In this document: positions 30,295 to 58,078 of the stretch, piece after piece
Position numbering within the stretch: the first letter of the stretch is position 1
Layout: every line of letters starts with the position of its first letter
DNA from: an uncultured virus (IMG/VR IMGVR_UViG_3300031613_000001)
Lineage: Duplodnaviria; Heunggongvirae; Uroviricota; Caudoviricetes; Crassvirales
DNA length: 64,000 nucleotides
IMG/VR virus record: IMGVR_UViG_3300031613_000001
Strand: one strand, 5' to 3'
Program-made: the position numbers and the translations under genes
Notes under the pieces: generated by a model
Databases searched by the model: none
What the model was told of the DNA's origin: nothing
What the model saw: only the letters and a program-made list of their open reading frames with translations

Positions 30295-30684
30295 ATGAAA
30301 GACAAAATAATTAGTTTTAAAACAGCTAAATTAGCTAAAGAAAAAGGGTTTGATATACCACAATTAAAAAGATATTTGTTAGATCAACATAATAATCATT
30401 GTCTTGCAAATAATAAAGGTTTACAAAATATAGGAATACAAGCACCAACACAATCTCTACTACAAAAATACTTAAGAGAAAAACATAATTTACATATTCA
30501 AGTACAAATAGGGGGGTATATAAATGGTAAAAATACAGCTTATTGTAATGTTTTTAAATTTGGTAAAACTTTATGGATTAGTAAATTTAGAAGTAAAACA
30601 TCTATATATACTTATGAAGAAGCTTTAGAAATAGGATTACAAGAAGCATTAAAATTAATAAAAAATGGAAAAAAAATGAAATAA
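30295..30684 (+). CDS. Hypothetical phage protein
   Basis: ISFKTAKLAKEKGF...APTQSLLQKYLRE.H...TYEEALEIGL. Confidence 0.7.
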   Translation: MKDKIISFKTAKLAKEKGFDIPQLKRYLLDQHNNHCLANNKGLQNIGIQAPTQSLLQKYLREKHNLHIQVQIGGYINGKNTAYCNVFKFGKTLWISKFRSKTSIYTYEEALEIGLQEALKLIKNGKKMK

Positions 30685-32602
30685 TAAAACTTACATATAT
30701 GATTTAGAAACATATAAAGATTTATTTCTTGCTACTTTTAAATGTATTGATACAAATGAATTTTGAAGATTTGAAATAAGTAAATATAAAACAGAAATTA
30801 AAAAACTGTATGAATTTCTTGAACAAAGAAATATAACTTTAATAGGTTATAACAATGTTAACTTTGATTATCCTGTATTACACAATACAATACTTAGACG
30901 TAAACGTAGATGAACATCAGAAGATATATATTATGAAGCTCAAAATATCATTGAAGCAGAGTATTCAGCTATATGGGATAGTGAAACAAAGATACCTCAG
31001 ATAGATTTATTTAGGATTAAGCACTATGATAACAAGGCACGTAGAACATCTCTTAAATGGCTTGAATATGCTATGAGAATGAATGATATTCGTGATTTAC
31101 CTTATCCACCAGGAGACTCTTTAACAAGAGAAATGATGGATGAGATAATATCTTATTGTGATCATGATGTTAATGCTACACATCTATTTTATAAGCTTTG
31201 TGAAAAGGATATAGAGCTTAGGTTGCAGTTATCAAAACAATATGGATTAAATCTTACTAATGCTAATGATCCTAAGATTGGTAGTGAGATCTTTTTAGAT
31301 TTATTATCTAAGGAAATGAATATTGATAAAAAGGAACTTAAAGAAAAGCGTACTTACAGAAAAAGAATTGATTTTAGTGAAATAATACTTGATTATATTA
31401 AGTTTGAAACACCTGAAATGAATAGCGTTCTTGATGGATTTAAAAGCTATAGAGCAATAGATACAAAGGGAGACTTTAAGTTTACTGGTAAAATTGGTAA
31501 TATATATAATGACTTTGGTCAAGGTGGTATTCACGGTTGTACTAAATCTGGTATTTATGAAAGTGATAGCAAAAAAGTTATTATAGATATTGACGTTGCA
31601 AGTTATTATCCTAATTTAGCTATTAACAATGGTTTTAGACCACAACATTTAGGAGATGCATTTAGTAAAATTTATAAAAGTATTTACGAGCTCAGGAAAA
31701 CATTTCCAAAATCAGATCCTCGTAATGCTGCATGTAAGTTAATGCTCAATGGTGCATTTGGTAAGATGAATGATGTTTATAGTTTTTTATATGATCCTAA
31801 GTGTTTATTAAGCATAACTCTTAACGGTCAGTTATTACTAGCAATGTTAATGGAAAAGATAAACAGTAACGTTAGTGATATTGAATTTCTTCAATCTAAT
31901 ACAGATGGTTTTACTTTTCTTATTGATAGAGATAAAGTAGAATATATGAAGAAGATAGTAACTGCATGGGAAAAGAAAACTGAACTTGTTATGGAGTATG
32001 CTATTTATGATAAAATGATTATACGTGATGTTAATAATTATATGAGTGTTACAGACACTGGTTATATTAAGTATAAAGGTTGTTTTGAAATGGATAGGGA
32101 CTATAATAAGAATCACAGTAAAAGGATTGTACCTATTGCTTTAGCTAACTACTTTATAAACAATGTAGATCCTGAATTTACATTATATAATCATTTAACT
32201 AAGTTTAAAAGTGATATAGTAAAATCTGATTATGAGTTTTGTAAAAACTATGGAATACACGACTTTTGTTTAGCCGTTAAAATGACAGGTCAAAACAAGC
32301 TTGTAAGAAGAATTGTAAAAGACTATCAACCAGAAGATCACAAGTTAGGTAAGGTAACAAGATATTATATTTCTAATGATGGTAATATGCTTGTTAAAAA
32401 ATTACCACCATTACCTGATAAAACACCTACTATGCAAATTAATATCTTTAATGAAGTTGATATGGGTGATAGAGAATCAAGTATAGAAGCTGGTTATGAT
32501 AGCACAGTTTTCAATAAATATTATGATAGTGATAATTATAATATTAATTATGACTATTATTTAAGAGAAATAAACAAAATTATTAACGTAATAAAAAATT
32601 AA
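30665..32602 (+). CDS. polB: Family B DNA polymerase, 645 aa if TGA=Trp (TGA at 30677, 30764, 30911)
   Basis: ExoI YIYDLET and ExoII GYNNVNFD lie upstream of the called ORF in the same frame; ExoIII YCDHDV; DVASYYP, KLMLNGAFGK, NTDG, YKG. Confidence 0.9.
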
Positions 32603-32767
32603 ATGAGCACTCAAATATGCCCACTTTGTTGTGGTAGTAAAAAGTACATGACACAGAAATCTACAGTTGAAAAAAATGGTTTAATTTACGTAGATTGTAA
32701 TACTTGTGATAATAATGGTTTAGTAGACTCAGATTTATTTATAGATGTTACAGATATGGATTATTAA
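32603..32767 (+). CDS. 54-aa zinc-finger protein
   Basis: CPLCCG...CNTCDNNG. Confidence 0.6.
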   Translation: MSTQICPLCCGSKKYMTQKSTVEKNGLIYVDCNTCDNNGLVDSDLFIDVTDMDY

Positions 32768-32796
32768 ATCTAAACAAAATTAATTAAAATATTAAA

Positions 32797-33384
32797 ATGA
32801 AATTATGAGATATAGAAAATTTATCATTTAACTTTAAAGACATAAAGTTACTAGATATAAATATTAACCAAATATTATGTATTATAAAAATATATTTAAG
32901 CTCAAACAAAATTTATTTTGATTATGATATAAGTAAACCTTATATAAATGATTTAATTAACAAAAACTATTTAATATCTGATTCTAAAGGTATATACCTT
33001 AGAGATAAAGGAAAAAAAGTTGTTAAAGTATTTGTTAAAATAAAAGAAGACAGTAGAAAAGAAGAAGAACTTGAAAATCAAGTTAAAAAGTATAGAACAT
33101 TATTTAAAGATATTAAAGTCGGATCAATGGGATCATCTATTTCTACTAAAAAAAAATTACAAAGGTTTATGGATAATAATCCTGAAATAACTTTTGAAGA
33201 AATCATTAATGCATCTGAAATGTATATAGATAGTTTTAATGATAGTTTTAAATATATAAAAAGAGCTGATTACTTTATATATAAACAAAATTATAAAGGT
33301 GAAGAAACATCTGACCTAGAAATATGGTTAGAACAATCCATGAAAGAACCTGAAAATTCAGATTGGAGAACAGAATTAATTTAA
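32797..33384 (+). CDS. Putative replication protein, 195 aa if TGA=Trp (TGA at 32806)
   Basis: ATG AAA TTA TGA GAT... in frame with ORF 33127..33384; YI..ADYFIYK motif. Confidence 0.65.
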
Positions 33385-33580
33385 TTAAAAAAAATGATTA
33401 CAGAATGGAAAGTATTAGTTAACGGTACAATAAATAATATAACTTCTGATAAATTTGATGTACAAGATCAATTTAAAGATATTAAAAAAAAAGTTTATAA
33501 AAAAATAGGTGTTAACAAAAAAACAATAGTTAAACCTGAAATTTATATTATAAATAGAGTATAATAACAAAACATAAATA

Positions 33581-36872: not shown

Positions 36873-37085
36873 ATGGCAAAAATAGATGTTGAATATCATA
36901 AACTATTACAAAAAATTAAAAATGAAAGATTTAAATATGAAGATCCTAATCGCAAAGGTGTATTTAGGTATCAGATACCAACTTACACGCTGGTACACAA
37001 TTTTACAGATGGTTTTCCCGCAATGACTACTAAAAAACTATTTTGGAAAGGAATTGTTGGGGAATTATTATGGTTTTTACGTGGT
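36873..37085 (+). CDS. thyA: Thymidylate synthase exon 1
   Basis: [25 protein letters not shown]. Confidence 0.9.
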
Positions 37086-37515
37086 GAATTATTGCCTAGT
37101 TAAGTAGGGATACTTAACCGTAATCTGTCTAAACAGGGAATCTCCTATTAATAGGACAATCCTGTACTAAATTTTATAATTTAAATCATTACAAAATTAT
37201 AAATAAATGTGCAACGACTAGCTCATAAAAGAGCGTACACAATAAGCTTATGATTGTGGAAACGGCAGAAACCTAGAACAGGTTAAGATATAGTCTAATC
37301 TATACAGTAATGTATAGCAGTTTAATTAATTAAAAATAAAAAACATGACAACTTATAAAATAATAGTATTAACAATTGGAAGTATAGGAATTATAGCAAT
37401 ATCATTAATGTTTATACTTATGGGAGATTGTGCTATTAATGATGATGATGATGATGATTGTGATGATTGTTAATTAAACGTATAAACAAGTTGCGTTGTT
37501 TATAGAATATAAATG
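37086..37515 (+). mobile_element. Group I intron in thyA (430 nt), no homing endonuclease
   Basis: Exon ends GGU pairing with GCC (U:G), terminal G; AAACAGGGAA 37131, AATCCTGTAC 37158, GCAACGACTAG 37211, AAGATATAGTC 37285; splicing restores LLWFLRG-DTNIKYL. Confidence 0.92.
37345..37473 (+). CDS. Intron-borne 42-aa peptide (TM helix plus acidic Cys tail)
   Basis: MTTYKIIVLTIGSIGIIAISLMFILMGDCAINDDDDDDCDDC, A-rich leader, looped out of stem GTTTAATTAA/TTAATTAAAC. Confidence 0.55.
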   Translation: MTTYKIIVLTIGSIGIIAISLMFILMGDCAINDDDDDDCDDC

Positions 37516-38382
37516 GATACTAATATTAAATATCTTGTAGATAATGGTATAAACATTTGGAATAAAGATGCTTATAATTATTTTAAATCACAATTAAGTG
37601 GTGAATGGTATGAGTTAAAAAATCTAACTTTAAAAGATTTTATTGAAGCTATAAAAAACAATGAAACTGGATATAATTTTGATAATTATGTGTTAGGTGA
37701 TTTAGGTAGAGTATATGGTGCTCAATGGAGAGATTGGCAATGTAAAGATAATTTTGGAGTAACTTGGTTTAAAGATCAAATATCTAATCTTATAAAAGGA
37801 TTAAAAGAAACACCTATGGGTACAAAACACATAGTTACTGCTTGGAATCCTGCAGAGTTAGATGATATGGCTTTACCTCCTTGTCATTGGAGTTTTGAAA
37901 TATTAGTTGAGCCTTTATCTAAAACTGAAATATTAATGAAATTGTATGAAGGTGTATCCTTTAGCGATATGAATTTTCAAAATCCAAATCCTAATAAAAA
38001 TGTACCTAGATATAAATTTACTTTAAAATGGCATCAACGTTCAGTGGACACATTTTTAGGTTTACCATTTAACATAGCTTCTTACGCCACTTTAGCACAC
38101 ATAATAGGTAAGATGACCAATATGGTTCCGAAAGCTATTATAGGTGATCTTAGCAATGTACATATCTATGAAAATCACTTGGATGCTGTTAAAGAACAGT
38201 TGTCTAGAGATCTTAATAAACATGGTAAATGTGAATTAAATATTAGTTCATTAGGATTAAATAATTTAGAGCATAATAAAATTAATACTTGTTTAGATAA
38301 TTTAAATATTGATAATTTTCAATTAGATAATTATAAATCTTATCCAGCAATTAAAGCAAAAATGTTAGCTTATGATAATTAA
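37516..38382 (+). CDS. thyA: Thymidylate synthase exon 2
   Basis: GDLGRVYGAQWR, MALPPCH, QRSVDTFLGLPFNIASY, HIYENH. Confidence 0.92.
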   Translation, partial: DTNIKYLVDNGINIWNKDAYNYFKSQLSGEWYELKNLTLKDFIEAIKNNETGYNFDNYVLGDLGRVYGAQWRDWQCKDNFGVTWFKDQISNLIKGLKETPMGTKHIVTAWNPAELDDMALPPCHWSFEILVEPLSKTEILMKLYEGVSFSDMNFQNPNPNKNVPRYKFTLKWHQRSVDTFLGLPFNIASYATLAHIIGKMTNMVPKAIIGDLSNVHIYENHLDAVKEQLSRDLNKHGKCELNISSLGLNNLEHNKINTCLDNLNIDNFQLDNYKSYPAIKAKMLAYDN

Positions 38383-38941
38383 AAAAGATAAAGAATTTAA
38401 TGATTTTTCATGTCATTATTATATTATAAATAACAGTGGGTTATATAAATGTTCTTCTGCTTGTTGGTCAGATATAAAAAATTATATTTATAAAGATTAT
38501 ATTTATATTGATCATAAAAGTATAATTAAAACTAAATATTTAAAAAGATTAGTTAATTTAATTAATAATATAACTGAATGTAAATTAGTAAATATTAATA
38601 ATAAAAATTTAATTAAATATAAGATATTTAATCAGAATCTTTCTCAAAACTGTTGTTATAAAACAAATTTAGTTTTGTTAAATTTTATAAGAACATTGTG
38701 GCATAAACCTTCAGGTTTTAATAACAAGAAATTTTATAAATCTATAATGAAAAATTTAAAAAGACAAGAGAGTTTATATTTTTTAATGGAATGTTTGAAA
38801 AATAGTGTTATTAAATTAAATAATAGAAATTCTATGTACGGAGATCATTCTAATATTTATCCTAATATAATACCTAAACACAAAAATAAATTAATTAATA
38901 AAAAATGGTTATCATGTAAAAAATTTATGATTTCTAAATAA
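38372..38941 (+). CDS. Hypothetical protein
   Basis: 189-aa ORF. Confidence 0.6.
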   Translation: MIIKKDKEFNDFSCHYYIINNSGLYKCSSACWSDIKNYIYKDYIYIDHKSIIKTKYLKRLVNLINNITECKLVNINNKNLIKYKIFNQNLSQNCCYKTNLVLLNFIRTLWHKPSGFNNKKFYKSIMKNLKRQESLYFLMECLKNSVIKLNNRNSMYGDHSNIYPNIIPKHKNKLINKKWLSCKKFMISK

Positions 38942-38954
38942 TTAATACTACTAA

Positions 38955-38975
38955 ATAAGTCAACAATGTCAACTT
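38955..38975 (+). promoter_or_regulatory. 21-nt motif ATAAGTCARCAATGTCAACTT (copy 2 at 39686-39706)
   Basis: One mismatch between copies; each ends 21 nt before a start codon. Confidence 0.6.
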
Positions 38976-38996
38976 AATTTATTGAATAAAAACAAT

Positions 38997-39671
38997 ATGG
39001 CACATTTAGTATACATTGTAGGTGAATCAGGTACTGGTAAATCTACAAGTCTTAGGAAATTAAATCCTGACGAAACCGTAATCGTAAATACGGATCAAAA
39101 AGCACTACCTTTTAGAAAATACAAGCAAATATATAATGAAGAAAAAGGTAATTATATACAATCTAGTAATATAAAAGATGTAGTTGGAAAACTTTCAGAA
39201 GCTAATGCTAATGAAAATATCAAAACTGTTATAGTAGATACATGGTCACGTATTATGACTGATTCTGTAATGAGTAATGAATTTAACAATGCAAAAAACG
39301 GTATGCAAGCATGGGCTAACATGGCTAGAAATCAATATAAATTGATTAACTATGTTAACGATATTATGCGTAACGACATTATTGTTTATTTCTTTTGTCA
39401 TCCAGAAAAAATATATGATGATATGGGTACTATGAATCAACGAATAGCAGTTCAAGGTAAACAATTAGCAAAATTAAGCCCTGAAAGTTTTAGTAGTATA
39501 GTGTTATATACAGAGGTAAAAAAAGAGCCGGGAAAACCAGCTAGATACCTTTTTAGAACACATAATGATTCTACAGATACTTGCAAAACACCAATGGATA
39601 TGTTTGAAGAAGACTATATTGAAAATGATTTGGTGGAAGTAAATGATACAATTAGAGCATACTATGACTAA
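38997..39671 (+). CDS. AAA/Sak4-like ATPase (recombination)
   Basis: GESGTGKSTS, IVDT, TCKTPMDMF, IENDL. Confidence 0.8.
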   Translation: MAHLVYIVGESGTGKSTSLRKLNPDETVIVNTDQKALPFRKYKQIYNEEKGNYIQSSNIKDVVGKLSEANANENIKTVIVDTWSRIMTDSVMSNEFNNAKNGMQAWANMARNQYKLINYVNDIMRNDIIVYFFCHPEKIYDDMGTMNQRIAVQGKQLAKLSPESFSSIVLYTEVKKEPGKPARYLFRTHNDSTDTCKTPMDMFEEDYIENDLVEVNDTIRAYYD

Positions 39672-39727
39672 TCATTAGTTTGTATATAAGTCAGCAATGT
39701 CAACTTTAAACTTATATATAAAAATAA

Positions 39728-40342
39728 ATGATTGATTTAAACGAATTTTCGGAAACAAATAACGATGTGTTAATCTTTAACAACGGAGACGCAGGACGAG
39801 TAACAGACTTGTCTGTATCTGTTAAAAAGAAGACCGCAGAAGATAATCAAAATGCACCTGATTATAAAATACATTATACACAAGCAAATGGTGCTGATGT
39901 TAATGATGGTATTTATTACCCTCAAGATTCAGATGGCAACCCAGGCTTTGTCTTGAAAAGATTAGTTACAGTTTTACATGCAGTAAATCCTGAAAGTAAA
40001 GATGTAGCTTTACCAACTTTTCCAAGTTATACAGCAGCAGTAGATTTTCTAATGAAGAAAATTAATGAAGCTGGTAAACAAGGACATAAAGTAAATGTAT
40101 TTGTTAATTATGGTGTAAAACAGTATCCGAAAAATTATTTAACTGTTAGAAAAATCAACTTTGTTGAATCATCTTCAAAAGATGAGTCACTAAGTAGATT
40201 AAAAGCAGTTAAAAGTACAGATGTAACCAAGGTTGGTTATAATGACATTATGTCAAGACCTGAACCAGATAATAATGAAGATGTATTTCAAAGCAAGGAC
40301 AATTCTCCTGCTAATGATGAAGCAACTGATGATTTTTTCTAG
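39728..40342 (+). CDS. Probable single-stranded DNA-binding protein
   Basis: 204 aa, acidic C-terminus ending DDFF, between ATPase and primase. Confidence 0.6.
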   Translation: MIDLNEFSETNNDVLIFNNGDAGRVTDLSVSVKKKTAEDNQNAPDYKIHYTQANGADVNDGIYYPQDSDGNPGFVLKRLVTVLHAVNPESKDVALPTFPSYTAAVDFLMKKINEAGKQGHKVNVFVNYGVKQYPKNYLTVRKINFVESSSKDESLSRLKAVKSTDVTKVGYNDIMSRPEPDNNEDVFQSKDNSPANDEATDDFF

Positions 40343-40354
40343 AAGGTCAAAATT

Positions 40355-40380
40355 AAAGAGGGGGAAACCCCTCTTTTTTT
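40355..40380 (+). terminator. Rho-independent terminator
   Basis: AGAGGGG-GAAA-CCCCTCT-TTTTTT. Confidence 0.85.
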
Positions 40381-40395
40381 ATAATAAAACAAAAT

Positions 40396-41436
40396 ATGAA
40401 TATAGATTTAAATAATCATGTTCCTAAACCTTTAATAAATAGTAAAGTATTAGATCAAGAATTGACTGATAGTCAAATATATTCATTTTATATGAATACA
40501 TCTGATCTTAAACTAAACACGGCAATGAGTTCACCTCTTAGAGATGATCCAACACCTTCTTTTGGTTTCTTTTTGAATAAAAAAAGTAAAATCATTTATA
40601 ATGATTTTGTAACTGGTGGTGGGGATTGCTATAAATTTGTAAAAGAACTTTTTGGTTATTCACAATGGTTTGACGTATATAGTCAAATTGCTGTTGATTT
40701 TAATTTAGATAGTAAATATATTTGTAGTAGAAATATTACAAGTGATAAAACTAAATCTAATATTAAATATGACAAAAATATTCAAATACAAAAAAAAGCT
40801 AAGTGTGACATTGGTGTTACTAAAAGGGAATGGCAGACACATGATTTAGAATATTGGAATTCTTTTAATATATCTAAACCTATGTTAATAAAATACAGAG
40901 TTTTTCCTTTAAGATATATATTCTTAAATAAAAGACCTATTGCAGCTGACAAACATGCATATGTATATATAGAAACAAAGGATAGAAAGATTACGCATAA
41001 AATTTATCAGCCATTTAGTAAATTTAAATGGATAACTGATAATGATAATTCAGTATGGCAAGGTTGGCAACAACTTCCAAACAGAGGTGATGTTTTAATT
41101 ATAACAAAATCTTTAAAGGATGTTATGTCAATAAAAGCTACAACTGGATTTAATGCAATAGCTTTACAAAATGAAAAAGCTAATCCTAAAGATGTAGTAA
41201 TAGAAGAATTAAAAGTTAGGTTTGATAGAGTTTTTATATTATTTGATAATGATTATGATAAATCAGAAAACTGGGGACAGATTAATGGGAAAGAAATATC
41301 CCGAGATTACATGATCAAGAATTTACTAATAGAAAAAGAATATAAATCTAAAGATTTCTCTGATTTAGTTGCAAACCATGGAAAGAATTTTGCAAAAGAA
41401 TTATTAAATTCAAAAATAAACAAAAAAGATGAATAA
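40396..41436 (+). CDS. dnaG: DNA primase (crAss-type DnaG)
   Basis: SPLRDDPTPSF, DF..GGGDC..FV, IITKSLKDVM, FDND, KDFSD. Confidence 0.85.
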   Translation: MNIDLNNHVPKPLINSKVLDQELTDSQIYSFYMNTSDLKLNTAMSSPLRDDPTPSFGFFLNKKSKIIYNDFVTGGGDCYKFVKELFGYSQWFDVYSQIAVDFNLDSKYICSRNITSDKTKSNIKYDKNIQIQKKAKCDIGVTKREWQTHDLEYWNSFNISKPMLIKYRVFPLRYIFLNKRPIAADKHAYVYIETKDRKITHKIYQPFSKFKWITDNDNSVWQGWQQLPNRGDVLIITKSLKDVMSIKATTGFNAIALQNEKANPKDVVIEELKVRFDRVFILFDNDYDKSENWGQINGKEISRDYMIKNLLIEKEYKSKDFSDLVANHGKNFAKELLNSKINKKDE

Positions 41437-41818
41437 AAAAAATATGAATGTAGCAGTATATGGAACTCTTAGAACTGGTTTTCACAACCACGGTGTTTTA
41501 GGTAATTCCAAACTAATTGGTTCTGGTTGGACCAAAGAAAAGTACGAACTTACAGCAAATGGTATTCCATTTGTAAACAAAGAAAAACCAACAAGTAACG
41601 TCAGAGTAGAAGTTTATTCTGTAACACCAGAACAAATACCTTCTGTTGATAGACTTGAAGGTTATAACCCAAATGACCATGATGGATCATGGTATAAAAG
41701 ATCACCTATTGACATCACTTTGGATAATAATGAAAAAGTTAAAGCTTCTTTGTATTTCTGCAATAAAAGTGCTCAAACCTTAATTAAATCAGGTGATTAT
41801 GCAGATTATAAAAGATAA
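41429..41818 (+). CDS. Gamma-glutamylcyclotransferase (AIG2-like)
   Basis: VAVYGTLR.G..NH, EVY, DRLEGY, YKR. Confidence 0.88.
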   Translation: MNKKNMNVAVYGTLRTGFHNHGVLGNSKLIGSGWTKEKYELTANGIPFVNKEKPTSNVRVEVYSVTPEQIPSVDRLEGYNPNDHDGSWYKRSPIDITLDNNEKVKASLYFCNKSAQTLIKSGDYADYKR

Positions 41819-45676: not shown

Positions 45677-47786
45677 TATAGTACTTACATGTTTAATACT
45701 TCAAATGTTATTAAATATTTTTAGTATTAATAAACAAAAAGAAACACTTTCTTGTGGAATATTTGGATGGACAGGTTCTGAATCTTCATTATTTGACATA
45801 GATAAATTTAAAATATTAGGTATATTAAACCAATCTAGAGGTAAAGATTCATGTGGTGTATATATGAATGAAGAACTTTACAAGGGTGACAATATAGGAA
45901 CTAATAACGAGGCTTTATTTACAGATATGATGATTCATCAGAAACTAAAAATTGAAAAAGAATCTAAAATTGTAATTGGTCATACTAGAAATTCATCAAG
46001 AGCTGGTATTAAAAGTGTAGATAATACACATCCTTTTATGTTTGAAATAGAAAATAATCATAATTTTATAGGTGCTCATAATGGTACTCTTGACAATCAT
46101 GTTTTTCTTGCTGAAAAATATGATATTAAACTTACAGATAATAATGGAAGAGTTAAAGTAGATAGTGAAATATTATTAGAAATAATATCTAAAACTACTT
46201 CTGATAATCCTCATTATATTAAAGTTTTACAAGAATATAAAGGAGCAGCTGCTTTAGTTATGCATTCTACTAAAGATCCTGATATAATGTATGTTTATAG
46301 AGGTAGATCTAAAAAGTTTGATTATAGTACTTCTCAAATACAAGATGAAAGACCTTTACATTACTGGAATAATTCTAAATCAAGTATGTATTTTTCTTCA
46401 GATTATGAACCTCTTGAGCTTATTGCTAATAAAAAACACAATGAAAAAGATTCTAACATATTTACATTTAAATCAAACGTTTTATATACTATTAAAAAAG
46501 GTGTTATAATAAGTATGAATGAAATAGATAGATCTAAAAACAAAAAGTATATTAGTATGCATGAGTTTAAATCTCAATCTAGAAATAATAACAAAAAGAA
46601 AAACATTTTTGTTAGAAAAACTGATACTTATGTTAATAAGCAACCTAATAGATCTAAAAATATCATGTATAAATCAGAAAGCGAAAAGATGAGAGAAAAT
46701 GTTATTTCTAACATGTCTAATGAAGAAGCTAATATATGTAAAAGTATTTTTTATGAAAAAGTTATTAGAAATGAAAAAAATGTTAAAAATAACAGAATTT
46801 ATTTTGAAAATTTTAGATATAAACAAAATGGTAAATTTCCAGCTGACGGTGCTTATATTCACTCTGATAATAATGGTTTTGTTTTCTTAAGTAAAAGTAT
46901 TACTGAAGCTAAAGAAAAACTTAAGAAATTATCAATAAAAGATAGTGAAACTAGTTCTTTAGTTACTATACATAATGCAGATTTAGATTTATTTTATATT
47001 GTTGATGGTATTTTACTTAATAAAGAACTTGATTATAAAATTATTACAGAAAGAGGTGTTGATAAATATACTGTTATTGATCTTTCACATATGAGTATGT
47101 ATCCTATTACTAGTTATTATGAACCATCTTATTTGAAAAATAAAAAAGATACTCTTTTATACAAAGAACATAATCTTACTAAAAATCAAATTTTAAGAAA
47201 TGGTAAGTATGTTAAATCTGAAAGTATTCAACCTATATCTTCTACTTACATTTATATAATAAAAGATGGTATAATAAGTAATTCTTTTTATAATCAAGTA
47301 TGGAATAGTACCAAACAATATAAAGTTTTAAAAAATGGTAAAGTAAATGTTACAAACGCTTATAAACCTATATTACCAGTAGTAATTAAAAATCCTAATA
47401 GTGGTACTTTTGAAATTAATGTAAATTCTTTAATTAGTGAAAAAATAAAAGATGAAAATATTGATGATGAAGAAATTGAATTTTTAGAAAATGATAATAA
47501 AAAAGATAAATTAAAATATTCATTATCGGATTTTAAAGAAACTATAGAAAGTGCATTAGAGTTAGGTGTAGAAATATCTAATGATAATTATGATGATAAT
47601 GAAGTTGCAATGACTTTATTTCATTTTTGTCAAAATTTAGAAGATATTTATAATCCTATGAAAAAATGGTTAGATAATTATTTAAGTTTGGATAATAATC
47701 TTGAAATTGATGAATATGATGAATATTATGATGATGAAGAAGTAATGTTTATAGAACAAAAACGATTTAATACTACTGGTAACTAA
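45663..47786 (+). CDS. Class II (Ntn) glutamine amidotransferase with hydrophobic leader and long C-terminal extension
   Basis: CGIFG at residue 31, RGKDSCG, GHTR, NTHPF, AHNGTL, VDSE, ERPL. Confidence 0.82.
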   Translation: MLIFNIVLTCLILQMLLNIFSINKQKETLSCGIFGWTGSESSLFDIDKFKILGILNQSRGKDSCGVYMNEELYKGDNIGTNNEALFTDMMIHQKLKIEKESKIVIGHTRNSSRAGIKSVDNTHPFMFEIENNHNFIGAHNGTLDNHVFLAEKYDIKLTDNNGRVKVDSEILLEIISKTTSDNPHYIKVLQEYKGAAALVMHSTKDPDIMYVYRGRSKKFDYSTSQIQDERPLHYWNNSKSSMYFSSDYEPLELIANKKHNEKDSNIFTFKSNVLYTIKKGVIISMNEIDRSKNKKYISMHEFKSQSRNNNKKKNIFVRKTDTYVNKQPNRSKNIMYKSESEKMRENVISNMSNEEANICKSIFYEKVIRNEKNVKNNRIYFENFRYKQNGKFPADGAYIHSDNNGFVFLSKSITEAKEKLKKLSIKDSETSSLVTIHNADLDLFYIVDGILLNKELDYKIITERGVDKYTVIDLSHMSMYPITSYYEPSYLKNKKDTLLYKEHNLTKNQILRNGKYVKSESIQPISSTYIYIIKDGIISNSFYNQVWNSTKQYKVLKNGKVNVTNAYKPILPVVIKNPNSGTFEINVNSLISEKIKDENIDDEEIEFLENDNKKDKLKYSLSDFKETIESALELGVEISNDNYDDNEVAMTLFHFCQNLEDIYNPMKKWLDNYLSLDNNLEIDEYDEYYDDEEVMFIEQKRFNTTGN

Positions 47787-47799
47787 TAAAAATAATAAA

Positions 47800-49314
47800 A
47801 TGATAGTTAAAACCTATAATGGTAAAAATATCGATAAATTAAAATGTCGAAAAATTAAAAATGAATATTATGAAATAGGTAATATTGAAGTTAAAAATAG
47901 TGGAGGATGTTATAAAGTAAATAATAAGTATCACAGATTTAATAATGGTCTTATTGAATATGATCACGAAAATAAATCTTATGTATTAGTAAATAAACAA
48001 CTTTTAACAAAAGGTATTATTAATATAAATGATGATGATACTTTTGAATTAGGTTTTTTTAGTCCAAATGTTACTGAAAATATAAAAGTTTCATTAGATA
48101 AATTTTCTTTTCAAACATGTATTAATAAAAATGTATTAAATAATAATTACTTAGAGCATTATAACACTGGTGTTTTTTACAAAAAAGATATGATGTCAAA
48201 ATCATCTTTTAAAAAAATTGGAAAAGCACCTGTAGATAAAAATACTTTAAATTATGATAGTAGATTTGTTAGTAAAATGATTGAAAAATCATATTCTGAT
48301 TATTATAAACCTTCCACTAAAAATAAAATGGTAGAAGAATTTGGATTATTATTAGAAAAAAATGGTATCACTTTTGGTCTTGAATTTGAAACATCTAGAG
48401 GTTATTTACCAGATAGATTATGTTATAAACATGGAATAATAGCATTGAGAGATGGTAGTATTTCAGGTTTAGAATATGTAACAGTACCTTTATCTGGTAC
48501 AAAAGGTTTATACAATGTTATGGAAATTTGTAATCTGTTAAAAGAAAGAACACAATACGATTATAATTGTTCATTACACCTTCATTTAGGTGGTCTTAAA
48601 AGAACTCCTAATAATATTCTTGCTATTAATAATATATCAACTTTATTAGAACGTGATATTTATTCTTTACAACCTTTGTATAAAGAAATTTCTACAAATT
48701 ATGATAAAAATAAAAATTATAGTGGTCCTATGAATACTACTTCATTAGAAATAATGATGGATTATAAAAATACTGATATTAAAAAACTTAAACAAATTGC
48801 TTTTGATAATTTATTTAGTGGTTTATCAGGAGGTTATACTTTTTCCGAATTTGGTGAAGATTTAGCCAATGTAAATAAACATCCTAAAGATCCTAATGGT
48901 ACTTCTAAATGGAATATTAAAGCTAGGTATGTGTGGTTTAATATGATACCTATTATATTTACTAATATGAAAACTGTTGAATTTAGACAACATAACAATA
49001 CTTTTGATTTTTTTAAAATATTTCATTTTATGTTAATGTCATCTGTAATTGTAGTTTCTGCTAATAAGTTAGAAAATAAATTTAATGACCCTAAATTTTT
49101 AAAATCCTTTAGCAAACTTAATAATAAATATAGTTCACTTTTAAAGCTTCTTAATAAAAAAGCTCCTGAATTTAGTAATTTACTTTGTGATAGTAATCAA
49201 AAATATTTTGATGAAAGAGTTGAAGTAATGAAAGAAATGAACAAAAAAGATCCCAAAGGTCTTAGTGAACATTCTTATTATAGTAGTTTTACAGATTCAG
49301 TAATTGAAAAATAA
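47800..49314 (+). CDS. Putative amidoligase (COOH-NH2 ligase fold)
   Basis: TFGLEFET, DGSISGLEYVT.P, CSLHLH, RY.WFN, TVEFRQH. Confidence 0.82.
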   Translation: MIVKTYNGKNIDKLKCRKIKNEYYEIGNIEVKNSGGCYKVNNKYHRFNNGLIEYDHENKSYVLVNKQLLTKGIININDDDTFELGFFSPNVTENIKVSLDKFSFQTCINKNVLNNNYLEHYNTGVFYKKDMMSKSSFKKIGKAPVDKNTLNYDSRFVSKMIEKSYSDYYKPSTKNKMVEEFGLLLEKNGITFGLEFETSRGYLPDRLCYKHGIIALRDGSISGLEYVTVPLSGTKGLYNVMEICNLLKERTQYDYNCSLHLHLGGLKRTPNNILAINNISTLLERDIYSLQPLYKEISTNYDKNKNYSGPMNTTSLEIMMDYKNTDIKKLKQIAFDNLFSGLSGGYTFSEFGEDLANVNKHPKDPNGTSKWNIKARYVWFNMIPIIFTNMKTVEFRQHNNTFDFFKIFHFMLMSSVIVVSANKLENKFNDPKFLKSFSKLNNKYSSLLKLLNKKAPEFSNLLCDSNQKYFDERVEVMKEMNKKDPKGLSEHSYYSSFTDSVIEK

Positions 49315-50008
49315 TATTATAAATTTTCAAAAAACTTTTGGTGAATGGGTTAACGATGAAAGCTTTTTATATATGATTAAATCAGATTATTTTAAAGAGC
49401 TTATCATTTATTTAAACAAAAGTTATGAAAAAAAAACTATATTTCCTTTAAAAAGAAATATATTTAGAGCTTTTAGATATGTTCCTTATAATAAAGTAAA
49501 AGTGGTGATAATAGGAAATACTCCTAATCCTAATATTTCAGCAAATGGTTTTTCATTTGCTAATAGTGATGAAACTATTAGGATATCACCTTCTTTATTT
49601 AAAATAAGAGAACGGGTTGAGCAAACATATAATAGTTTAGATATTAATTTTGATGTTACTTTAAAACACTGGGCTTTACAAAATGTAATGCTTCTAAACA
49701 CATCATTAACAATTCAAGCTGGAATTGTAAACTCACATCAAAAAATATGGGATAATTTTATTAAAGTTACTATTAATACTATTATAGATAATAATCCAGG
49801 TGTAATATTTTGTTTATGGGGAAAGGATGTTATGAAAACTTTTCACGAAGTTGTTCCAGAAAACAAATTAAAATTTTGCTATGCTTTAAAATGTATACAT
49901 CCTGAACTTGCTGCAAAAAGAAATGAAGAATGGAATTGTAATCATTTTAAGCAAATTAATGAATTAATAAAAGAAAACAATGGAAAAGAATTTTGTATTA
50001 AATGGTAA
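49304..50008 (+). CDS. ung: Uracil-DNA glycosylase family 1 homologue with altered motif A
   Basis: IFRAF, VKVVIIGNTPNP (normally GQDPY), ANGFSF, PSL..I, LLNTSLT, LWG, HPE. Confidence 0.8.
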   Translation: MKNNIINFQKTFGEWVNDESFLYMIKSDYFKELIIYLNKSYEKKTIFPLKRNIFRAFRYVPYNKVKVVIIGNTPNPNISANGFSFANSDETIRISPSLFKIRERVEQTYNSLDINFDVTLKHWALQNVMLLNTSLTIQAGIVNSHQKIWDNFIKVTINTIIDNNPGVIFCLWGKDVMKTFHEVVPENKLKFCYALKCIHPELAAKRNEEWNCNHFKQINELIKENNGKEFCIKW

Positions 50009-50354
50009 TAAATTAATAGCTGAGTTTTTATATAAAAATAGATATAAGAATAGTAAAGATATAGAAGATTGTTATGTAGAAGAACCTAATTCATCAATGA
50101 TTACTTTTTATATTACAGATAGTAAATATCATAAATCTTGGGATTGGTTAATGCCTGTAGTTGAAAAAATAGAAAATCAATTTTGCAGTTCTAATATTCA
50201 CTATTATAGTGCTGGTAAAATGAAACAACAATATATTGTTGAATTTTTAGGTTATAATATTGATTATGATAATTCTCAATGGGATAAATCTAAAATCAAA
50301 GCTGTTTATCAAGCAGTAATTGAATTTATAGAATGGTATAACAAAAATAAATAA
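49980..50354 (+). CDS. Hypothetical phage protein
   Basis: NKLIAEF...YHKSWDWLMPVVEKIE...AVY.AV.EFI.WYN. Confidence 0.7.
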   Translation: MEKNFVLNGNKLIAEFLYKNRYKNSKDIEDCYVEEPNSSMITFYITDSKYHKSWDWLMPVVEKIENQFCSSNIHYYSAGKMKQQYIVEFLGYNIDYDNSQWDKSKIKAVYQAVIEFIEWYNKNK

Positions 50355-56174: not shown

Positions 56175-56361
56175 AATCAGGTAATGCTGGGTAGGTGGGT
56201 GGATCTAACATATATAATTAGCGTAAAGGCTGGGTGGGATGGTGGTAATAAAATTATGAAAAAAGCAATACAAAAACTTCAACAAATGTTAGATTGGAGT
56301 GATAGATTAGGTAGTGATGAAATACATGAAATTAATAGTATTATAACTTTATTAAAATCTA

Positions 56362-56532
56362 ATGAATAAAAAAGAAATAGTTAAAAAACTACAAAAAAAC
56401 AATTTATTATGGGAGAATTTCCAAAAATGAACAAAGGACCAGTCTATGGAGAAGGATTTTTATTGCTATCAAGACATAGATCAATTTATATCTTTAAAAA
56501 AAGAAGGATTAAACATTTATTGAAATCAATAG
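56362..56532 (+). CDS. 56-aa hypothetical protein if TGA=Trp (TGA at 56428, 56521)
   Basis: MNKKEIVKKLQKNNLLWENFQK*TKDQ...; fills gap between neighbours. Confidence 0.4.
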
Positions 56533-56541
56533 TAAGATTTC

Positions 56542-56880
56542 ATGAAAAAATTAACAAACATAAACATGGATAAAAAAACTATATTATTAGGTAGACCTAA
56601 TACCTCAGGTGGATTAACTAATATTTATTTAAATGTACAATCAGAAGAAAAAATAAAACCTGGTGATGAAATTAAATCTATTGGTATAATTTTAAAAATA
56701 GAAACTGATGTTTATAATTTTATAAATAATGGTATTTTAACTAAAACTACTTATATTGATTTAAATAGTAAATTTTTACAATGTTTTATTATAAAAAAAG
56801 AGTATGAATATTATAATTATAATTTATATAAGATAAAAAGTAAATTTAATATTATAAACGAAATAAGAAAAATTTTATAA
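56542..56880 (+). CDS. Hypothetical protein
   Basis: 112-aa ORF. Confidence 0.5.
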   Translation: MKKLTNINMDKKTILLGRPNTSGGLTNIYLNVQSEEKIKPGDEIKSIGIILKIETDVYNFINNGILTKTTYIDLNSKFLQCFIIKKEYEYYNYNLYKIKSKFNIINEIRKIL

Positions 56881-56881
56881 T

Positions 56882-58078
56882 ATGGATAAAAGAGATGAAG
56901 TCCAAAAAGAAGCATTAAAAAAATGAATTGGTGCAGGTAAACGTGGGACTGTGGAGGTTAGTACTGGTGTCGGAAAAACTTTTATAGCATTACATGCATT
57001 ACATTCAATGAAAAGTAACGAAAAACTTCATTTATATTTAGCTGAAACAACAGAACGAAAAAAGGATTTATTAAAATCTATTAAGTTATACGATGACATT
57101 TTTAAGGTTAACACTTTAAAATCATATAATCTTAAATTCTATTGTTATCAGTCTGCTTATAAATGAAGAAATAAAGAATTTGGTTTAGTTATTGCTGATG
57201 AAATTCATGATAGCTTAACCCCTTCATATTCTAATTTTTATAAAAATAATACTTATGATGGTATTATTGGATTATCTGCAAAAGTAGATACAAAAACAGA
57301 GTATGAAGATAGGTATGGTAATATTATTAACAAAGGAAAATATCTTAACGAGTATTGTCCTATATGTTATAAATATTCCATAGATGATGCAAGAGAAGAT
57401 GATTTAAATCGTAATCTTAATATTCATATAATTTACAACCAGCTTGAAGAAATAGAAAAAACAGTAAAAGCTGGTAGTATAAAAAAACCTTTTTACCAAA
57501 CAGAAAAAGAAGCATATAGTTATTGGAGTAAAAGACTTGCTCAAAGTAGATTTATGGAAACTACAGAAAAACAAAATCTATTTGCTAGAATATCAGTAGC
57601 TAAAAGAGCTACATTATTATACAATCTTGATTCAAAGATAAAATCTACTAACTTATTATTACCTCATCTTAAAAGAACTTTAGTTTTTGGTAATTCATTA
57701 GATGCTTTAGAAAAAGTAACAAAGAACGTTATATCATCGAGAAATAGCTCTGATATAAATGATAAAATAAGAAATGATTTTGAGAAAGAGATTGTAAATA
57801 CTATAGGAAGCTTTAAATTACTTAAGCAAGGTGCTAATATCAAAGGACTTGATAACCTTGTTATAATGTCTTATTATAGCTCTGAGAAAGACCTTATCCA
57901 AAGAGCTGGGCGAATTCGTAGGGATGGGAAAGAAAAAGGTGCTGTATTTATATTCGTAACACAAGGAACTCAAGAAGAAAAATGGTATGACAGGATGTTT
58001 GGAAATATTAACGCTTACAATGTAATTAGTCACAAAGACATTTATGATTGTATTAAACATATAAAAAATGAGATATAG
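56882..58078 (+). CDS. Superfamily 2 DExH helicase, 398 aa if TGA=Trp (TGA at 56924, 57164)
   Basis: Q.EALKK*, TGVGKT, IADEIH, GLSA, QRAGRIRR all in one frame joining two called ORFs. Confidence 0.88.

Follow-up and report, generated by a model that had tools for sequence, protein, structure and literature searches.

In-frame UGA as a rare tryptophan codon near the 5' ends of early genes in a small clade of crAss-order phages

In the phage represented by the 64,000-nucleotide stretch of DNA analysed here (the window) and in three sister lineages, comparison of coding sequences shows that UGA is a rare tryptophan codon that has been dropped as a terminator. The source phage is a crAss-order phage of salty and marine waters, and the TGA pattern is common to a small clade of four lineages (the window, G002, G004 and L197) related to Cellulophaga phage phi14:2 (Crassvirales). 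The window was surveyed for stops and ORFs by code 4 and code 11 calls together with a codon table, and gene functions were taken from matches to PHROG and Pfam profiles (phrog_ and PF identifiers). The complete relative G002 was used for the genome-wide counts and the decoder search, and the standard-code relatives included phi14:2, G006 and G007. The observation in the earlier note on this DNA is confirmed, and its interpretation as an inverted recoding switch is partly supported.

TGA codons and the residues aligned with them

The survey exactly reproduced the reported 15 in-frame TGAs in nine intact genes, all within codons 4-95 (Table 1), and the codon table shows no TAA or TAG interruption in these nine frames. 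As had been stated, the later Trp codons of the nine genes are TGG, namely all 20 beyond codon 100; six more TGG lie within the first 100. Two additional TGAs formerly placed in a tentative small ORF have to be withdrawn, since those of ORF 29894-30250 (codons 3 and 5) precede the ATG at 29930 that starts the code-11 ORF. ORF 27788-27982 is likewise not credible and overlies a conserved non-coding block.

Table 1. Features of the window, with codon numbers (and window positions) of the TGA codons
Feature	Coordinates	Strand	TGA codons	TGG codons	Matches and remarks
Late/virion strand	2..21315	-			Tail fibre, MCP 7314-8831, portal 10066-12447, TerL 12533-14854, GroEL-like 18314-19741; PHROG matches
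Phage tmRNA gene	26336..26787	+			RF00023, 53.8 bits, E 2e-18; tag AKVKLAMAA, TAA end
tRNA-like gene	26959..27112	+			Rfam tRNA 28.5 bits (gathering 29), E 0.08; 78-nt insert replacing anticodon loop
polB, Family B DNA polymerase, 645 aa	30665..32602	+	5, 34, 83 (30677, 30764, 30911)	104, 132, 435	phrog_1252, E 1e-158
32797 gene, 195 aa	32797..33384	+	4 (32806)		Weak winged-helix match; no assigned function
DnaB-like helicase, 377 aa	35277..36410	+	18, 77 (35328, 35505)	none	PF03796, E 3e-10
TGA-free block	36873..50354	+	none		Split thyA, Sak4-like ATPase, primase, amidoligase/GATase/ATP-grasp cluster, UDG-like gene
RusA-like resolvase, 125 aa	50523..50900	+	18, 32, 90 (50574, 50616, 50790)	39, 40, 74	phrog_1682, E 2e-13
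52220 gene, 192 aa	52220..52798	+	18 (52271)	118	No assigned function
MazG-like pyrophosphatase, 100 aa	52825..53127	+	13 (52861)		PF03819, E 3e-8; phrog_715, E 1.5e-27
nrdB, ribonucleotide reductase small subunit, 324 aa	53328..54302	+	30 (53415)		PF00268, E 3.5e-55
nrdA, ribonucleotide reductase large subunit, 546 aa	54534..56174	+	51 (54684)	11 and ten later places	PF02867, E 1.6e-94
SF2 (ResIII/DEAD-type) helicase, 398 aa	56882..58078	+	15, 95 (56924, 57164)	215, 368	PF04851, PF00271
Giant virion-protein gene	60572..64000	-	none	10 in number	Extends past window end

Alignment of homologues at the TGA sites, which had been proposed as a check, shows that the standard-code relatives carry Trp or other aromatic or hydrophobic residues there. 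Phage phi14:2 has TGG at seven of the 15 places, among them all three sites of the RusA-like gene and codon 83 of polB, which is TGA in both G002 and G004. Codon 30 of nrdB aligns with the W in the RHSYWIH segment of a solved NrdB (6sf4/5olk, E 1e-133) and is W/TGG in 70/70 aligned standard-code phage loci. In the SF2 helicase, standard-code loci hold W in 56/59 cases at codon 15 and in 36/63 at codon 95, and codon 77 of the DnaB-like helicase corresponds to Y (16), W (15) or F (5) among 43 such loci. The nrdA site is F in 72 of 80 related loci, W encoded by TGG in five, and W encoded by TGA in three, these three being the clade. The TGAs of the 32797 gene, the 52220 gene and the MazG-like gene are retained in G002 and G004, the first also at the matching place in L197, and the DnaB-like helicase of G004 has TGA at the identical two places. 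In addition, TGA and TGG are swapped between sister lineages at polB 7, RusA 90, thyA 58, Sak4 106, SF2 215 and codon 118 of the 52220 gene; RusA 90 is TGG in G002 and G004, and the codon of G004 matching codon 118 is TGA.

A sequencing or assembly error, or a reading of TGA as selenocysteine or glycine (code 25), is hardly credible, and no point in favour of either was found. The same TGA codons occur in a separate 25-kb IMG/VR contig (L001) for the genes covered there; between 50400 and 58200 all 10 TGAs are covered by contigs of four further runs (none flagged as a possible source), with 0 alternative letters, so that assembly error is ruled out. The aligned residues are not Gly or Cys, and the 60 nt 3' of TGA show no extra structure (mean MFE -6.79 vs -6.52 after TGG, p 0.6).

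It is also very improbable that the TGAs terminate, leaving short N-terminal peptides and re-initiated truncated proteins, or that the genes are decaying pseudogenes. Code 11 does leave a long downstream ORF in each gene, but the first ATG available in frame is at codons 26-225; re-initiation there would lose the ExoI motif of polB, the Walker A/B motifs of the helicase and the conserved Trp of NrdB. In polB, TGAs flank the ExoI motif DLE (residues 13-15), and the following in-frame ATG is codon 137; in the SF2 helicase, Walker A (GVGKT) has a TGA on either side, and the following in-frame ATG is codon 225. Moreover, the upstream parts are conserved as protein among lineages 55-96% identical, the stretch before the last TGA being conserved about as well as the remainder (in polB, for example, 0.74-0.83 vs 0.81-0.83), and under code 4 all nine genes read through without interruption in three or four lineages.

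Terminators, late genes and the early module

Only five of 97 greedy code-11 ORFs of the window end in TGA, and because three of them run antisense and the other two are merely the 5' pieces of nrdA and the helicase, no credible window gene has a TGA end. The earlier statement to this effect is true of the window and G004, and in G002 a TGA stop may remain in no more than three ORFs, all small and early. In four standard-code relatives, TGA ends 28/357 ORFs, giving a probability of 5e-4 for 0 of 92.

The late strand is free of TGA. The codon table confirms 7, 11, 14 and 10 TGG (42 in all) and 0 TGA in the MCP, portal, TerL and giant protein genes, respectively, and 16 TGG without TGA in the tail fibre. 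On the late strand of the window, the complete ORFs of 100 aa or more, together with 60572-63892, hold 59 TGG and 0 TGA. The giant virion protein shares 59% identity with a G002 ORF of 1391 aa. TGA in structural genes elsewhere in the genome would have spoken against the pattern, and there is none among the 141 late-strand Trp codons of the complete G002, nor among the 262 of the late strands of three genomes together.

The description of the bearers as replication and dNTP genes is loose. Two of them have no assigned function, the primase, exonuclease and UDG-like genes lack TGA in any lineage checked, and Sak4 and thyA are TGA-free in the window and TGA-bearing in L197. According to the available part of a preprint (10.1101/2020.03.07.982082), the early gene class of phi14:2 is transcribed by the virion RNA polymerase; by synteny, the whole replication module belongs to this early class, and a decoder must therefore be available from the start of infection.

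Position, context and modes of decoding

The 5' bias is strong. When a list of 80 genes (15 TGA, 178 TGG) is split at codon 100, TGA falls 15/0 and TGG 69/109 (Fisher p 1.8e-6); the nine bearers by themselves give 15/0 for TGA and 6/20 for TGG (p 1.1e-6), and permuting within genes yields p 7e-5. Confinement to 5' ends, as previously claimed, is too strict for the clade, with TGA at codon 106 in Sak4 of L197 and at codons 117 and 213 in G004. The base after TGA is a purine at 23/23 distinct sites, usually A and never U, compared with a purine after 108/178 TGG (p 3e-5). Among the TGA-free plus-strand genes (the block at 36873..50354 and others), 21 have TGG within their first 100 codons, 34 in all; 19 of the 34 are followed by a purine, and these stay TGG.

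Among 60 Trp columns common to three lineages, 57 have a single codon state (47 TGG, 10 TGA), whereas A and G occur together in 198/538 K/E/Q columns of these genes (Fisher p 7e-8), which indicates that TGG is held against strong A-pressure. Two-fold A/G sites are about 83-88% A, but TGA makes up only 15/193 Trp codons (8%). None of the ten TGAs shared by three lineages has gone back to TGG (p between 0.007 and 0.18, by the polarisation of three mixed sites), which hints that TGA itself is kept. The median GC3 of the bearers (0.169) exceeds that of the other genes of the strand (0.108, p 0.011), and a simple AT-drift in weakly constrained genes consequently does not fit.

The explanation we favour, with about even confidence, is inefficient decoding of UGA as Trp in competition with release factor 2, allowed only where failure is cheap. 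UGA would be read via third-position C:A mispairing against the release factor, the decoder being not a canonical phage tRNA but most likely a host tRNA-Trp or a readthrough-prone variant. Every in-frame UGA would then pass only a fraction of ribosomes, and selection would therefore tolerate it only where failure costs little and decoding is favoured: inside the initial ~100 codons, which leave a short aborted peptide, before a purine (usually A), and in the early module. It would be excluded from the massively expressed late virion genes. The purine context and the strict retention of TGG agree with such costly competition no less well than with a designed gate. If this is true, the output of polB, the helicases, RusA, MazG and ribonucleotide reductase would hinge on the cellular UGA-reading capacity, which would act as a throttle. 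Against competitive decoding, polB requires three UGAs to be read and TGA stops are completely lost, so that decoding would have to be fairly efficient, beyond ordinary near-cognate leakage. The higher GC3, the absence of reversion, the TGG kept in purine contexts, the three possible TGA-ended ORFs of G002 and the tRNA-like gene found throughout the clade (below) also count against it.

We regard as unlikely a fully recoded host (code 4, with no RF2 and a tRNA-Trp that reads UGA) which the phage simply follows, the sparse 5' TGAs being a codon-usage effect. The loss of TGA stops, the presence of TGA in genes required from the start of infection, as judged from the phi14:2 preprint excerpt, and the search results for phage tRNA, release factor and TrpRS given below agree with it. 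However, a freely read TGA should dominate the Trp codons at the A content noted above, instead of being rare beside a strictly conserved TGG, and the dependence on the +4 base implies competition with a release factor. Furthermore, UGA = Trp in Bacteroidota is limited to one insect endosymbiont, with none free-living, in the portions of the literature covered (PMC13712303, PMC13462651), and in-frame stops were found in 0/74 nrdB matches from 301 genomes of the bacterial family with the nearest cellular nrdB.

Candidate decoders and comparison with known systems

The search for a tRNA-UCA, TrpRS or RF1, which the earlier note had recommended, gave no canonical candidate in the complete G002: ARAGORN in default mode found 0 canonical tRNAs there, and neither an RF-1 nor a tRNA-synt_1b (TrpRS-type) domain turned up in G002, G004 or G001. 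The sole candidate for a phage-borne decoder is the tRNA-like gene, which ARAGORN calls once introns are allowed. It is present in 4/4 clade members (homologues in G004, G002 and L197), with compensatory changes in 5/8 acceptor pairs, and its D-arm motif occurs in 1/9 standard-code relatives, there without the insert. Its anticodon is not assignable, as ARAGORN calls four different ones, so that no UCA is readable. The adjoining tmRNA gene is not specific to the TGA clade: the standard-code G006 and G007 have one too, and phi14:2 has one scoring 46 bits.

This tRNA-like gene bears on a further explanation, a programmed gate or attenuator, in which the 5' UGAs are selected to delay or lower the replication and nucleotide enzymes until UGA decoding rises, the capacity being supplied either by the phage (for example through the tRNA-like RNA with its insert) or by the altered infected cell. 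We consider it possible but doubtful. The ten TGAs stay at fixed sites without reversion in three lineages with A/G for the most part scrambled at synonymous sites, the bearer genes encode conserved enzymes, are higher in GC3 and are not drifting, the tRNA-like gene follows the clade, and the three G002 ORFs would suit a standard-code first phase. On the other hand, the bearer set varies (thyA and Sak4 have TGA in L197 alone, RusA 90 is TGA in the window alone, and the four lineages have 3, 3, 2 and 1 TGAs in polB), the primase, exonuclease and UDG-like genes are spared in every lineage checked, and the tRNA-like gene offers no readable anticodon. A-biased mutation also predicts retention of TGA, with p as weak as 0.18. 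The "switch" or "checkpoint" proposed earlier goes beyond what these results show: the whole module forms one early class in the phi14:2 material covered, and no canonical decoder was found.

As excerpted, the published accounts of recoded crAss-like phages place reassigned stops mainly in late genes and keep the replication machinery in the standard code (Yutin 2021, PMC7886860; Borges preprint 10.1101/2021.08.26.457843). The layout here is the opposite, as had been noticed, with TGA in early replication genes and none in virion genes, and it holds genome-wide in G002. The crAss-like beta/delta/zeta groups (PMC7886860) and the Agate and Jade phages (10.1101/2021.08.26.457843), recoded TGA-to-Trp or TAG-to-Gln, resemble the studied clade in reading a stop as an amino acid at conserved intragenic sites, in belonging to Crassvirales and in the same TGA-to-Trp change. 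The clade differs from them, so far as those excerpts describe them, in its reversed layout, rare codon, 5' bias and invariable purine, and in that the searches gave neither a canonical suppressor tRNA nor a release factor or TrpRS. Some phages reassign stops without a detectable suppressor tRNA, according to the part of Yutin 2021 (PMC7886860) covered.

Natural read-through by normal tRNA-Trp, in the available text of PMC5289835, involves the same codon, residue and favourable 3' neighbour: UGA is especially misread before +4A, and +4U, which is avoided here, reduces read-through (Engelberg-Kulka 1981, cited therein). Known read-through is, however, a low-level leakage or a single C-terminal extension, whereas here 15 codons lie in the N-terminal parts of nine essential-looking genes, in a clade that has given up TGA stops entirely. 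The A1 protein of coliphage Qbeta is a single C-terminal extension of this kind, made by UGA read-through.

Compared with these, Zinderia and Stammera, in which UGA is read as Trp with a CCA-anticodon tRNA-Trp (PMC13092985, PMC13712303), are cellular genomes, with UGA in most genes where fully recoded, in the sections of these papers covered. tRNA-Trp(CCA) variants having a 4-bp anticodon stem read UGA in standard-code bacteria and are tied to a lower use of UGA stops, as the same part of PMC13092985 reports. All of these illustrate how UGA can be read as Trp with no UCA tRNA involved, which could apply here, and we consider a host route for the decoding plausible.

Affiliation and layout of the window phage and its sister lineages

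The nearest named relative of the window phage, a tailed phage with a G+C content of ~27% over the 64 kb, is Cellulophaga phage phi14:2, which its record places in Crassvirales, Steigviridae, Akihdevirus. The gene order is the same in both, and the identity to phi14:2 is 45-50% in polB, 54% in the helicase, and 63% in RusA. On homology and shared gene order in the replication module and in the MCP, portal, TerL, and giant virion proteins, the window phage is a phi14:2-like member of Crassvirales.

Coordinates of the features in the window, its sister lineages (G002, G004, L197), and phi14:2
Feature	Genome	Coordinates	Strand	Remark
Tail fibre and GroEL-like gene	window		minus	late/virion block
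MCP	window	7314-8831	minus	late/virion block
Portal	window	10066-12447	minus	late/virion block
TerL	window	12533-14854	minus	late/virion block
Giant virion protein	window	60572-64000	minus	late/virion block
Long plus-strand block	window	21.4 to 60.5 kb	plus	small ORFs and non-coding RNA genes first, then replication/nucleotide-metabolism genes
Twister-like match	window	23650-23701	plus	type P1, ORF-poor early region
Non-coding blocks	window	24256-24891; 27759-27894	plus	70-85% identity with G004 and G002
tmRNA gene	window	26336-26787	plus	53.8 bits; tag AKVKLAMAA ending in TAA
tmRNA homologue	phi14:2	4031-4502		46 bits, just below the Rfam threshold; only tiny ORFs annotated in the record
tRNA-like gene	window	26959-27112	plus
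tRNA-like gene	G004	3216-3369		locus L080
tRNA-like gene	L197	2542-2694
tRNA-like gene	G002	68081-68226	minus	8081-8226 (minus) on locus L008
Clade-only ORFs	window	33581-34510; 36474-36866; near 56542
DnaB-like	window	35277-36410		single ORF, as in G004
DnaB-like pieces	G002	61985-62143; 58377-59294
DnaB-like pieces	phi14:2	12994-13152; 15766-16653
thyA ORFs	window	36873-37103; 37513-38382	plus	Pfam positions 2-66 and 66-265
Ligase/amidotransferase cluster	window	41429-49314	plus	common to phi14:2; zero TGA
60-aa clade-only ORF	window	53146-53328	plus	between MazG and nrdB
nrdA/nrdB	window	53328-56174		loci L102-L111
DUF1599	window	58642-59004		'nucleotide modification associated'
Possible TGA-ended ORFs	G002	69807-69971; 70973-71296; 71773-72087	minus	54, 107, and 104 aa; early region

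Relatives sharing the TGA trait were sought by IMG/VR scans with polB, helicase, and nrdA queries and by one metagenome scan. The IMG/VR scans yielded three lineages only, namely the window, G002 (also seen as L003; a complete genome of 100,482 bp with terminal repeats), and G004 (also seen as L017; 66.7 kb), and the metagenome scan added L197, which covers 18.4 kb of a ~100-kb scaffold. Among 64 helicase loci, 60 lack TGA in the homologues of 15 query genes and three belong to the clade; the remaining locus (L025) has one TGA, six codons before the end of a small gene. No TGA occurs in 76 of the 80 nrdA loci. The window is a part-genome, and the genome-wide layout was judged on the complete relative G002.

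The plus-strand cluster shared with phi14:2 encodes a gamma-glutamyl cyclotransferase, a RimK-like ATP-grasp protein, two GATase/peptidase C26 genes, a COOH-NH2 ligase, a GFAT-like amidotransferase, and an amidoligase. The two thyA halves of the window are separated by ~410 nt without an ORF, in which no intron was matched in Rfam; thyA of G004 is uninterrupted (359 aa). In G002 and phi14:2, residues 10-62 of the DnaB-like protein are encoded ~2.7 kb upstream of the remainder with two to four ORFs between, which means either that the gene is split or that it holds a very large insertion. The 60-aa ORF upstream of nrdB has its PHROG match in an HNH endonuclease family (E 7e-7) and is possibly a homing endonuclease remnant. 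The nrdA/nrdB genes of the clade are 89-96% identical among lineages, 27-40% identical to those of phi14:2, and 58-63% identical to an NrdB with an ATP cone from one bacterial family (60/301 genomes), which suggests that this type of ribonucleotide reductase was acquired separately.

In-frame TGA as a tryptophan codon

The codon table agreed exactly with the 15 in-frame TGAs reported in the earlier note, which fall at codons 4-95 of nine genes that are broken under code 11 and joined by code 4. The functions assigned there to polB, DnaB-like helicase, RusA, MazG, NrdB, NrdA, and SF2 helicase were confirmed, and two of the nine bearers received no function from the matches searched. In practice, code-11 gene callers truncate nine core genes; with code 4, the coding density is 0.905 instead of 0.845. 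Two extra TGAs attributed to a tentative small ORF were not credible, as they precede the probable start at 29930 or belong to an ORF that overlaps a conserved non-coding block. The 80 strand-consistent genes of the window contain 15 TGA and 178 TGG, so that TGA makes up 15/193 Trp codons; the count of 42 Trp in the MCP, portal, TerL, and giant protein, all TGG, was exact. Assembly error is contradicted by a separate 25-kb IMG/VR contig (L001), which carries identical TGAs in polB, the 32797 gene (g32797), and DnaB, and by contigs of four runs that bear no flag as a possible source and cover all ten TGAs of 50400-58200, with their only listed differences at 54242-54273. None of the 24 runs listed as carrying the phage is an RNA data set.

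The 5' bias held when the 80 genes were split at codon 100 (TGA 15/0, TGG 69/109, Fisher p 1.8e-6), within the nine bearer genes (TGA 15/0 vs TGG 6/20, p 1.1e-6), and when TGA labels were shuffled among the Trp sites within each gene (p 7e-5). The bias also follows the strand: within their first 100 codons, plus-strand genes at and beyond 30295 have 15 TGA and 40 TGG, and late-strand genes 0 and 22 (p 0.004). A-ending K/E/Q/L/R codons make up 0.89 in the first 100 codons vs 0.81 later (p 0.006), but a general 5' A-richness of this size is far too weak a cause for TGA at 15/21 early Trp codons vs 0/20 later ones.

Alignment to homologues supported a tryptophan at many of these sites, named here by gene and codon number. 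At seven of the 15, phi14:2 has TGG (polB 83, RusA 18/32/90, nrdB 30, and helicase 15/95). Residue tallies drawn from 77 standard-code loci gave W at nrdB 30 (8/8), helicase 15 (56/59), helicase 95 (36/63), and polB 83 (4/7), and mostly aromatic or hydrophobic residues at DnaB 77 (Y 16, W 15, F 5; n=43), RusA 32 (Y 21/27), RusA 90 (I 10, W 7, F 7; n=27), nrdA 51 (F 5, L 3), and g52220 18 (the 52220 gene; L/V/I 13/16). Less supportive are RusA 18 (K 15/27), DnaB 18 (I 8/13), polB 34 (Y 3/7), and polB 5 (W 1/3). In 80 phage loci with nrdA 70-96% identical, nrdB 30 is W-TGG in 70/70 standard-code loci and TGA in the three clade loci only, and nrdA 51 is F in 72, W-TGG in five, and TGA in three. 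A solved NrdB structure (6sf4/5olk, E 1e-133), which we take to come from a marine flavobacterium, has W aligned to nrdB 30 within RHSYWIH, a residue that presumably corresponds to Trp48 of E. coli R2. The protein segments before the last TGA are conserved as well as the remainder of each protein, and the next in-frame ATG lies at codons 26-225, where re-initiation would remove the ExoI motif of polB and the Walker motifs of the helicase. Judging from these alignments, in-frame TGA in the clade is read as tryptophan. Import of the TGAs from a code-4 donor was ruled out, since phi14:2 and 76 other nrdA-bearing phage loci have TGG there (F at nrdA 51). A selenoprotein reading was rejected as well: no SECIS-type excess structure follows the TGAs, and the homologues carry W, Y, F, or L, with Cys only at RusA 18 (4/27).

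The set of TGA-bearing genes shifts between lineages. G002 has TGA at helicase 12, 15, and 95, nrdA 53, nrdB 30, g52220 18, RusA 19 and 33, g32797 4, polB 80, and MazG 32 (codon 13 from the homologous start), as well as at codons 14 and 21 of two further genes. G004 carries the window set minus RusA 90, which is TGG, plus the counterparts of g52220 118 and helicase 215. L197, read outside the RusA-to-helicase region, has TGA at polB 7 and 80, g32797 4, thyA 58, and Sak4 106. The claim that the TGAs are confined to 5' ends thus stands for 20 of the 23 distinct sites, which lie within 100 codons, but is not absolute, as three lie later. On the late strands, TGA is absent from all 262 Trp codons (141 in G002, 62 in G004, and 59 in the window), and the early strands have 16, 16, and 18 TGAs, respectively, a few doubtful ORFs included. 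The inverted layout, with all TGAs on the early/replication strand and none on the late strand, was therefore borne out in three genomes.

The clade has given up TGA as a stop codon. No credible gene ends in TGA in the window, as first noticed, nor in G004, and G002 has 0-3 such genes. Among the greedy code-11 ORFs of the window, 5/97 end in TGA, of which three are antisense and two are the 5' fragments of nrdA and helicase. TGA ends 14/116 ORFs in phi14:2, 28/357 ORFs of at least 80 aa in phi14:2 and three further standard-code relatives (G005, G006, and G012), and 26/198 in ten low-GC standard-code loci; at this rate of the relatives, 0 of 92 would have a probability of 5e-4. The three small ORFs of G002, each extended by 11-17 codons under code 4 and each lacking a homologue in both the window and G004, may be the last genes of the clade to stop at TGA.

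Candidate decoders, host, and timing

No tRNA was found in the window, G002, or G004 by ARAGORN in default mode, and the search for a release factor or tryptophanyl-tRNA synthetase suggested earlier gave no RF-1 or tRNA-synt_1b Pfam match in G002, G004, or G001, with controls matched. In these searches, the 'code-change module' of published recoded phages (canonical tRNA, RF-1, tRNA-synt_1b) was not found. A tRNA-like gene just 3' of the tmRNA in all four clade lineages came up when Rfam was scanned permissively and ARAGORN was allowed introns. Its acceptor stem shows compensatory changes in 5/8 pairs, the D and T arms are conserved, and the anticodon-stem strands covary too (by eye). In place of the anticodon loop, it has a 58-78-nt insert that folds as a long irregular hairpin. 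ARAGORN proposed four different anticodons (AAA, CAA, CTT, and TAT), no UCA is conserved across the four lineages, and no anticodon is assignable. The D-arm motif is absent in eight of nine standard-code relatives (phi14:2, G005, G012, and G007-G011), and the ninth, G006, has the motif without the insert. The gene may be a processing signal, a decoy, or an unrecognised decoder.

The tmRNA has homologues in G004, G006, and G007, and was ruled out as a link to UGA because the standard-code G006 and G007, together with phi14:2 at its lower score, carry it too. Two abundant unexplained early non-coding RNAs near g004-g006 of phi14:2 are described in part of 10.1101/2020.03.07.982082; one of them may be this tmRNA, although the gene numbering differs. 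The twister ribozyme-like match scores 49.1 bits (gathering threshold 67.2; E 1e-8), and ~100 nt around it are conserved in G004 and G002. Neither of the two non-coding blocks matched an Rfam family; the second is closed by a 9-bp stem and contains two hairpins, one with a compensatory change (CAGGT/ACCTG vs CAAGT/ACTTG). The clade-only ORFs, MazG-like included, were rejected as a phage factor, as they gave no translation-related match; they have positional counterparts in phi14:2.

That the host itself is fully recoded is unlikely. TGA is too rare for such a host, and the available portions of PMC13712303 and PMC13462651 report UGA=Trp in Bacteroidota only for one insect symbiont. The nrdB matches obtained from 401 Bacteroidia genomes and from 301 genomes of one family were at most 63% identical and free of in-frame stops (0/74 in the 301 genomes of this closest family). 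A host search by genome-contig scan returned two binned phage contigs (L100 and L101), both without TGAs, and no host emerged from either the contig or the nrdB searches.

According to an excerpt from 10.1101/2020.03.07.982082, the replicative module of phi14:2 is of the early class and is transcribed rightward by a virion-packaged RNA polymerase, and the host polymerase serves the middle and late genes. The synteny with phi14:2 argues that all TGA-bearing genes would be early and that the decoder would be present at the start of infection. Premature stops on transcripts of the virion polymerase may escape Rho-type polarity, which would restrict TGA to the early strand.

Cost of decoding and comparison with known recoding systems

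Trp is conserved across the window, G002, and G004 in 60 columns, of which 47 are all-TGG, 10 are all-TGA, and three are mixed; by contrast, A and G are mixed in 198 of the 538 columns of these genes that conserve K, E, or Q (Fisher p 7e-8). G is kept in all three lineages in only 13 of the 211 K/E/Q columns having any G. With synonymous A/G sites near-scrambled and the Trp columns frozen, TGG is held against an A usage of 77-88%. The base following TGA (+4) is a purine at all sites in the window (15/15; A 11, G 4), G002 (13/13), and G004 (16/16), and at the five credible sites of L197, i.e., at 23/23 distinct TGA sites vs 108/178 TGG (p 3e-5), and +4U occurs at 0/23 vs 50/178. The preceding base is A at 12/15 TGA sites vs 82/178 TGG (p 0.015), and no excess of RNA structure was found downstream of the TGAs. 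A passage of PMC5289835 states that tRNA-Trp misreads UGA particularly before +4A and that +4U reduces read-through.

The rarity, context dependence, and 5' bias of the TGA codon beside unchanging TGG sites speak for an inefficient decoder that competes with RF2, and the loss of TGA stops speaks for considerable read-through all the same. Both features together would be expected from a host tRNA-Trp(CCA) variant like the one described in part of PMC13092985. The TGAs might then be purely passive, an inefficient decoding merely tolerated by the phage. However, the GC3 of the bearer genes is above that of their neighbours (p 0.011), no reversion is seen at the ten TGA sites common to the lineages (p 0.007-0.18), 19 TGG that precede a purine within the first 100 codons of 21 other genes remain TGG, and the tRNA-like gene tracks the clade. 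The TGAs might also form a designed gate, but lineages differ in which genes carry TGA and in how many each gene has, and several replication genes have none. We also put forward a speculative and rather improbable reading, in which the 5' UGAs of these environmental crAss-order phages would act as a translational throttle or timer on early replication enzymes translated from transcripts of the virion polymerase and would be decoded non-canonically, by host tRNA-Trp(CCA) mispairing that is exploited or boosted or by the insert-bearing tRNA-like RNA. If true, phages would have a second, inverted way of recoding stop codons, and perhaps a decoding RNA of a new type. The 5' limit, the +4 purine, and TGG held against A-pressure provide quantitative handles, the competition between tRNA-Trp and RF2 is testable on natural messages, and the family includes a cultivable model, as phi14:2 grows on Cellulophaga.

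Recoded stop codons in phages are already on record, among them TGA to Trp in the crAss-like group (parts of PMC7886860 and 10.1101/2021.08.26.457843), and a zeta-group polB with several TGAs is shown in a section of PMC7886860. We found no literature report of early-strand-only, 5'-proximal, purine-followed TGA without TGA stops or a canonical suppressor, nor of an insert-bearing tRNA in such phages. In the relevant portions of Yutin 2021 (PMC7886860) and Borges (10.1101/2021.08.26.457843), recoding is interpreted as a late-gene lock with a phage suppressor tRNA as the key. The clade departs from this threefold, with the recoded codon in early replication genes, none in late genes, and no canonical suppressor found.

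In the published recoded phages (Yutin 2021, Borges 2021), the recoded codon is enriched in late, structural, and lysis genes and the early genes are standard, which is the reverse of the clade; its avoidance as a terminator is shared by both, as is its in-frame placement where relatives carry one particular amino acid. Programmed stop-codon read-through likewise uses a leaky stop in a favourable context, here the +4 purine, but typically one stop that ends a complete ORF and leads to a C-terminal extension, whereas the clade TGAs lie inside catalytic proteins, with up to three per gene. In a genetic code 4 system, RF2 is absent and UGA is a frequent Trp codon throughout, the latter unlike in the window, where it is a small minority and TGG is strictly conserved. 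As a case of stop-codon capture, UGA has been lost as a stop and is still expensive as a sense codon, and the state of the clade corresponds to the intermediate stage predicted by the codon capture and ambiguous intermediate models.
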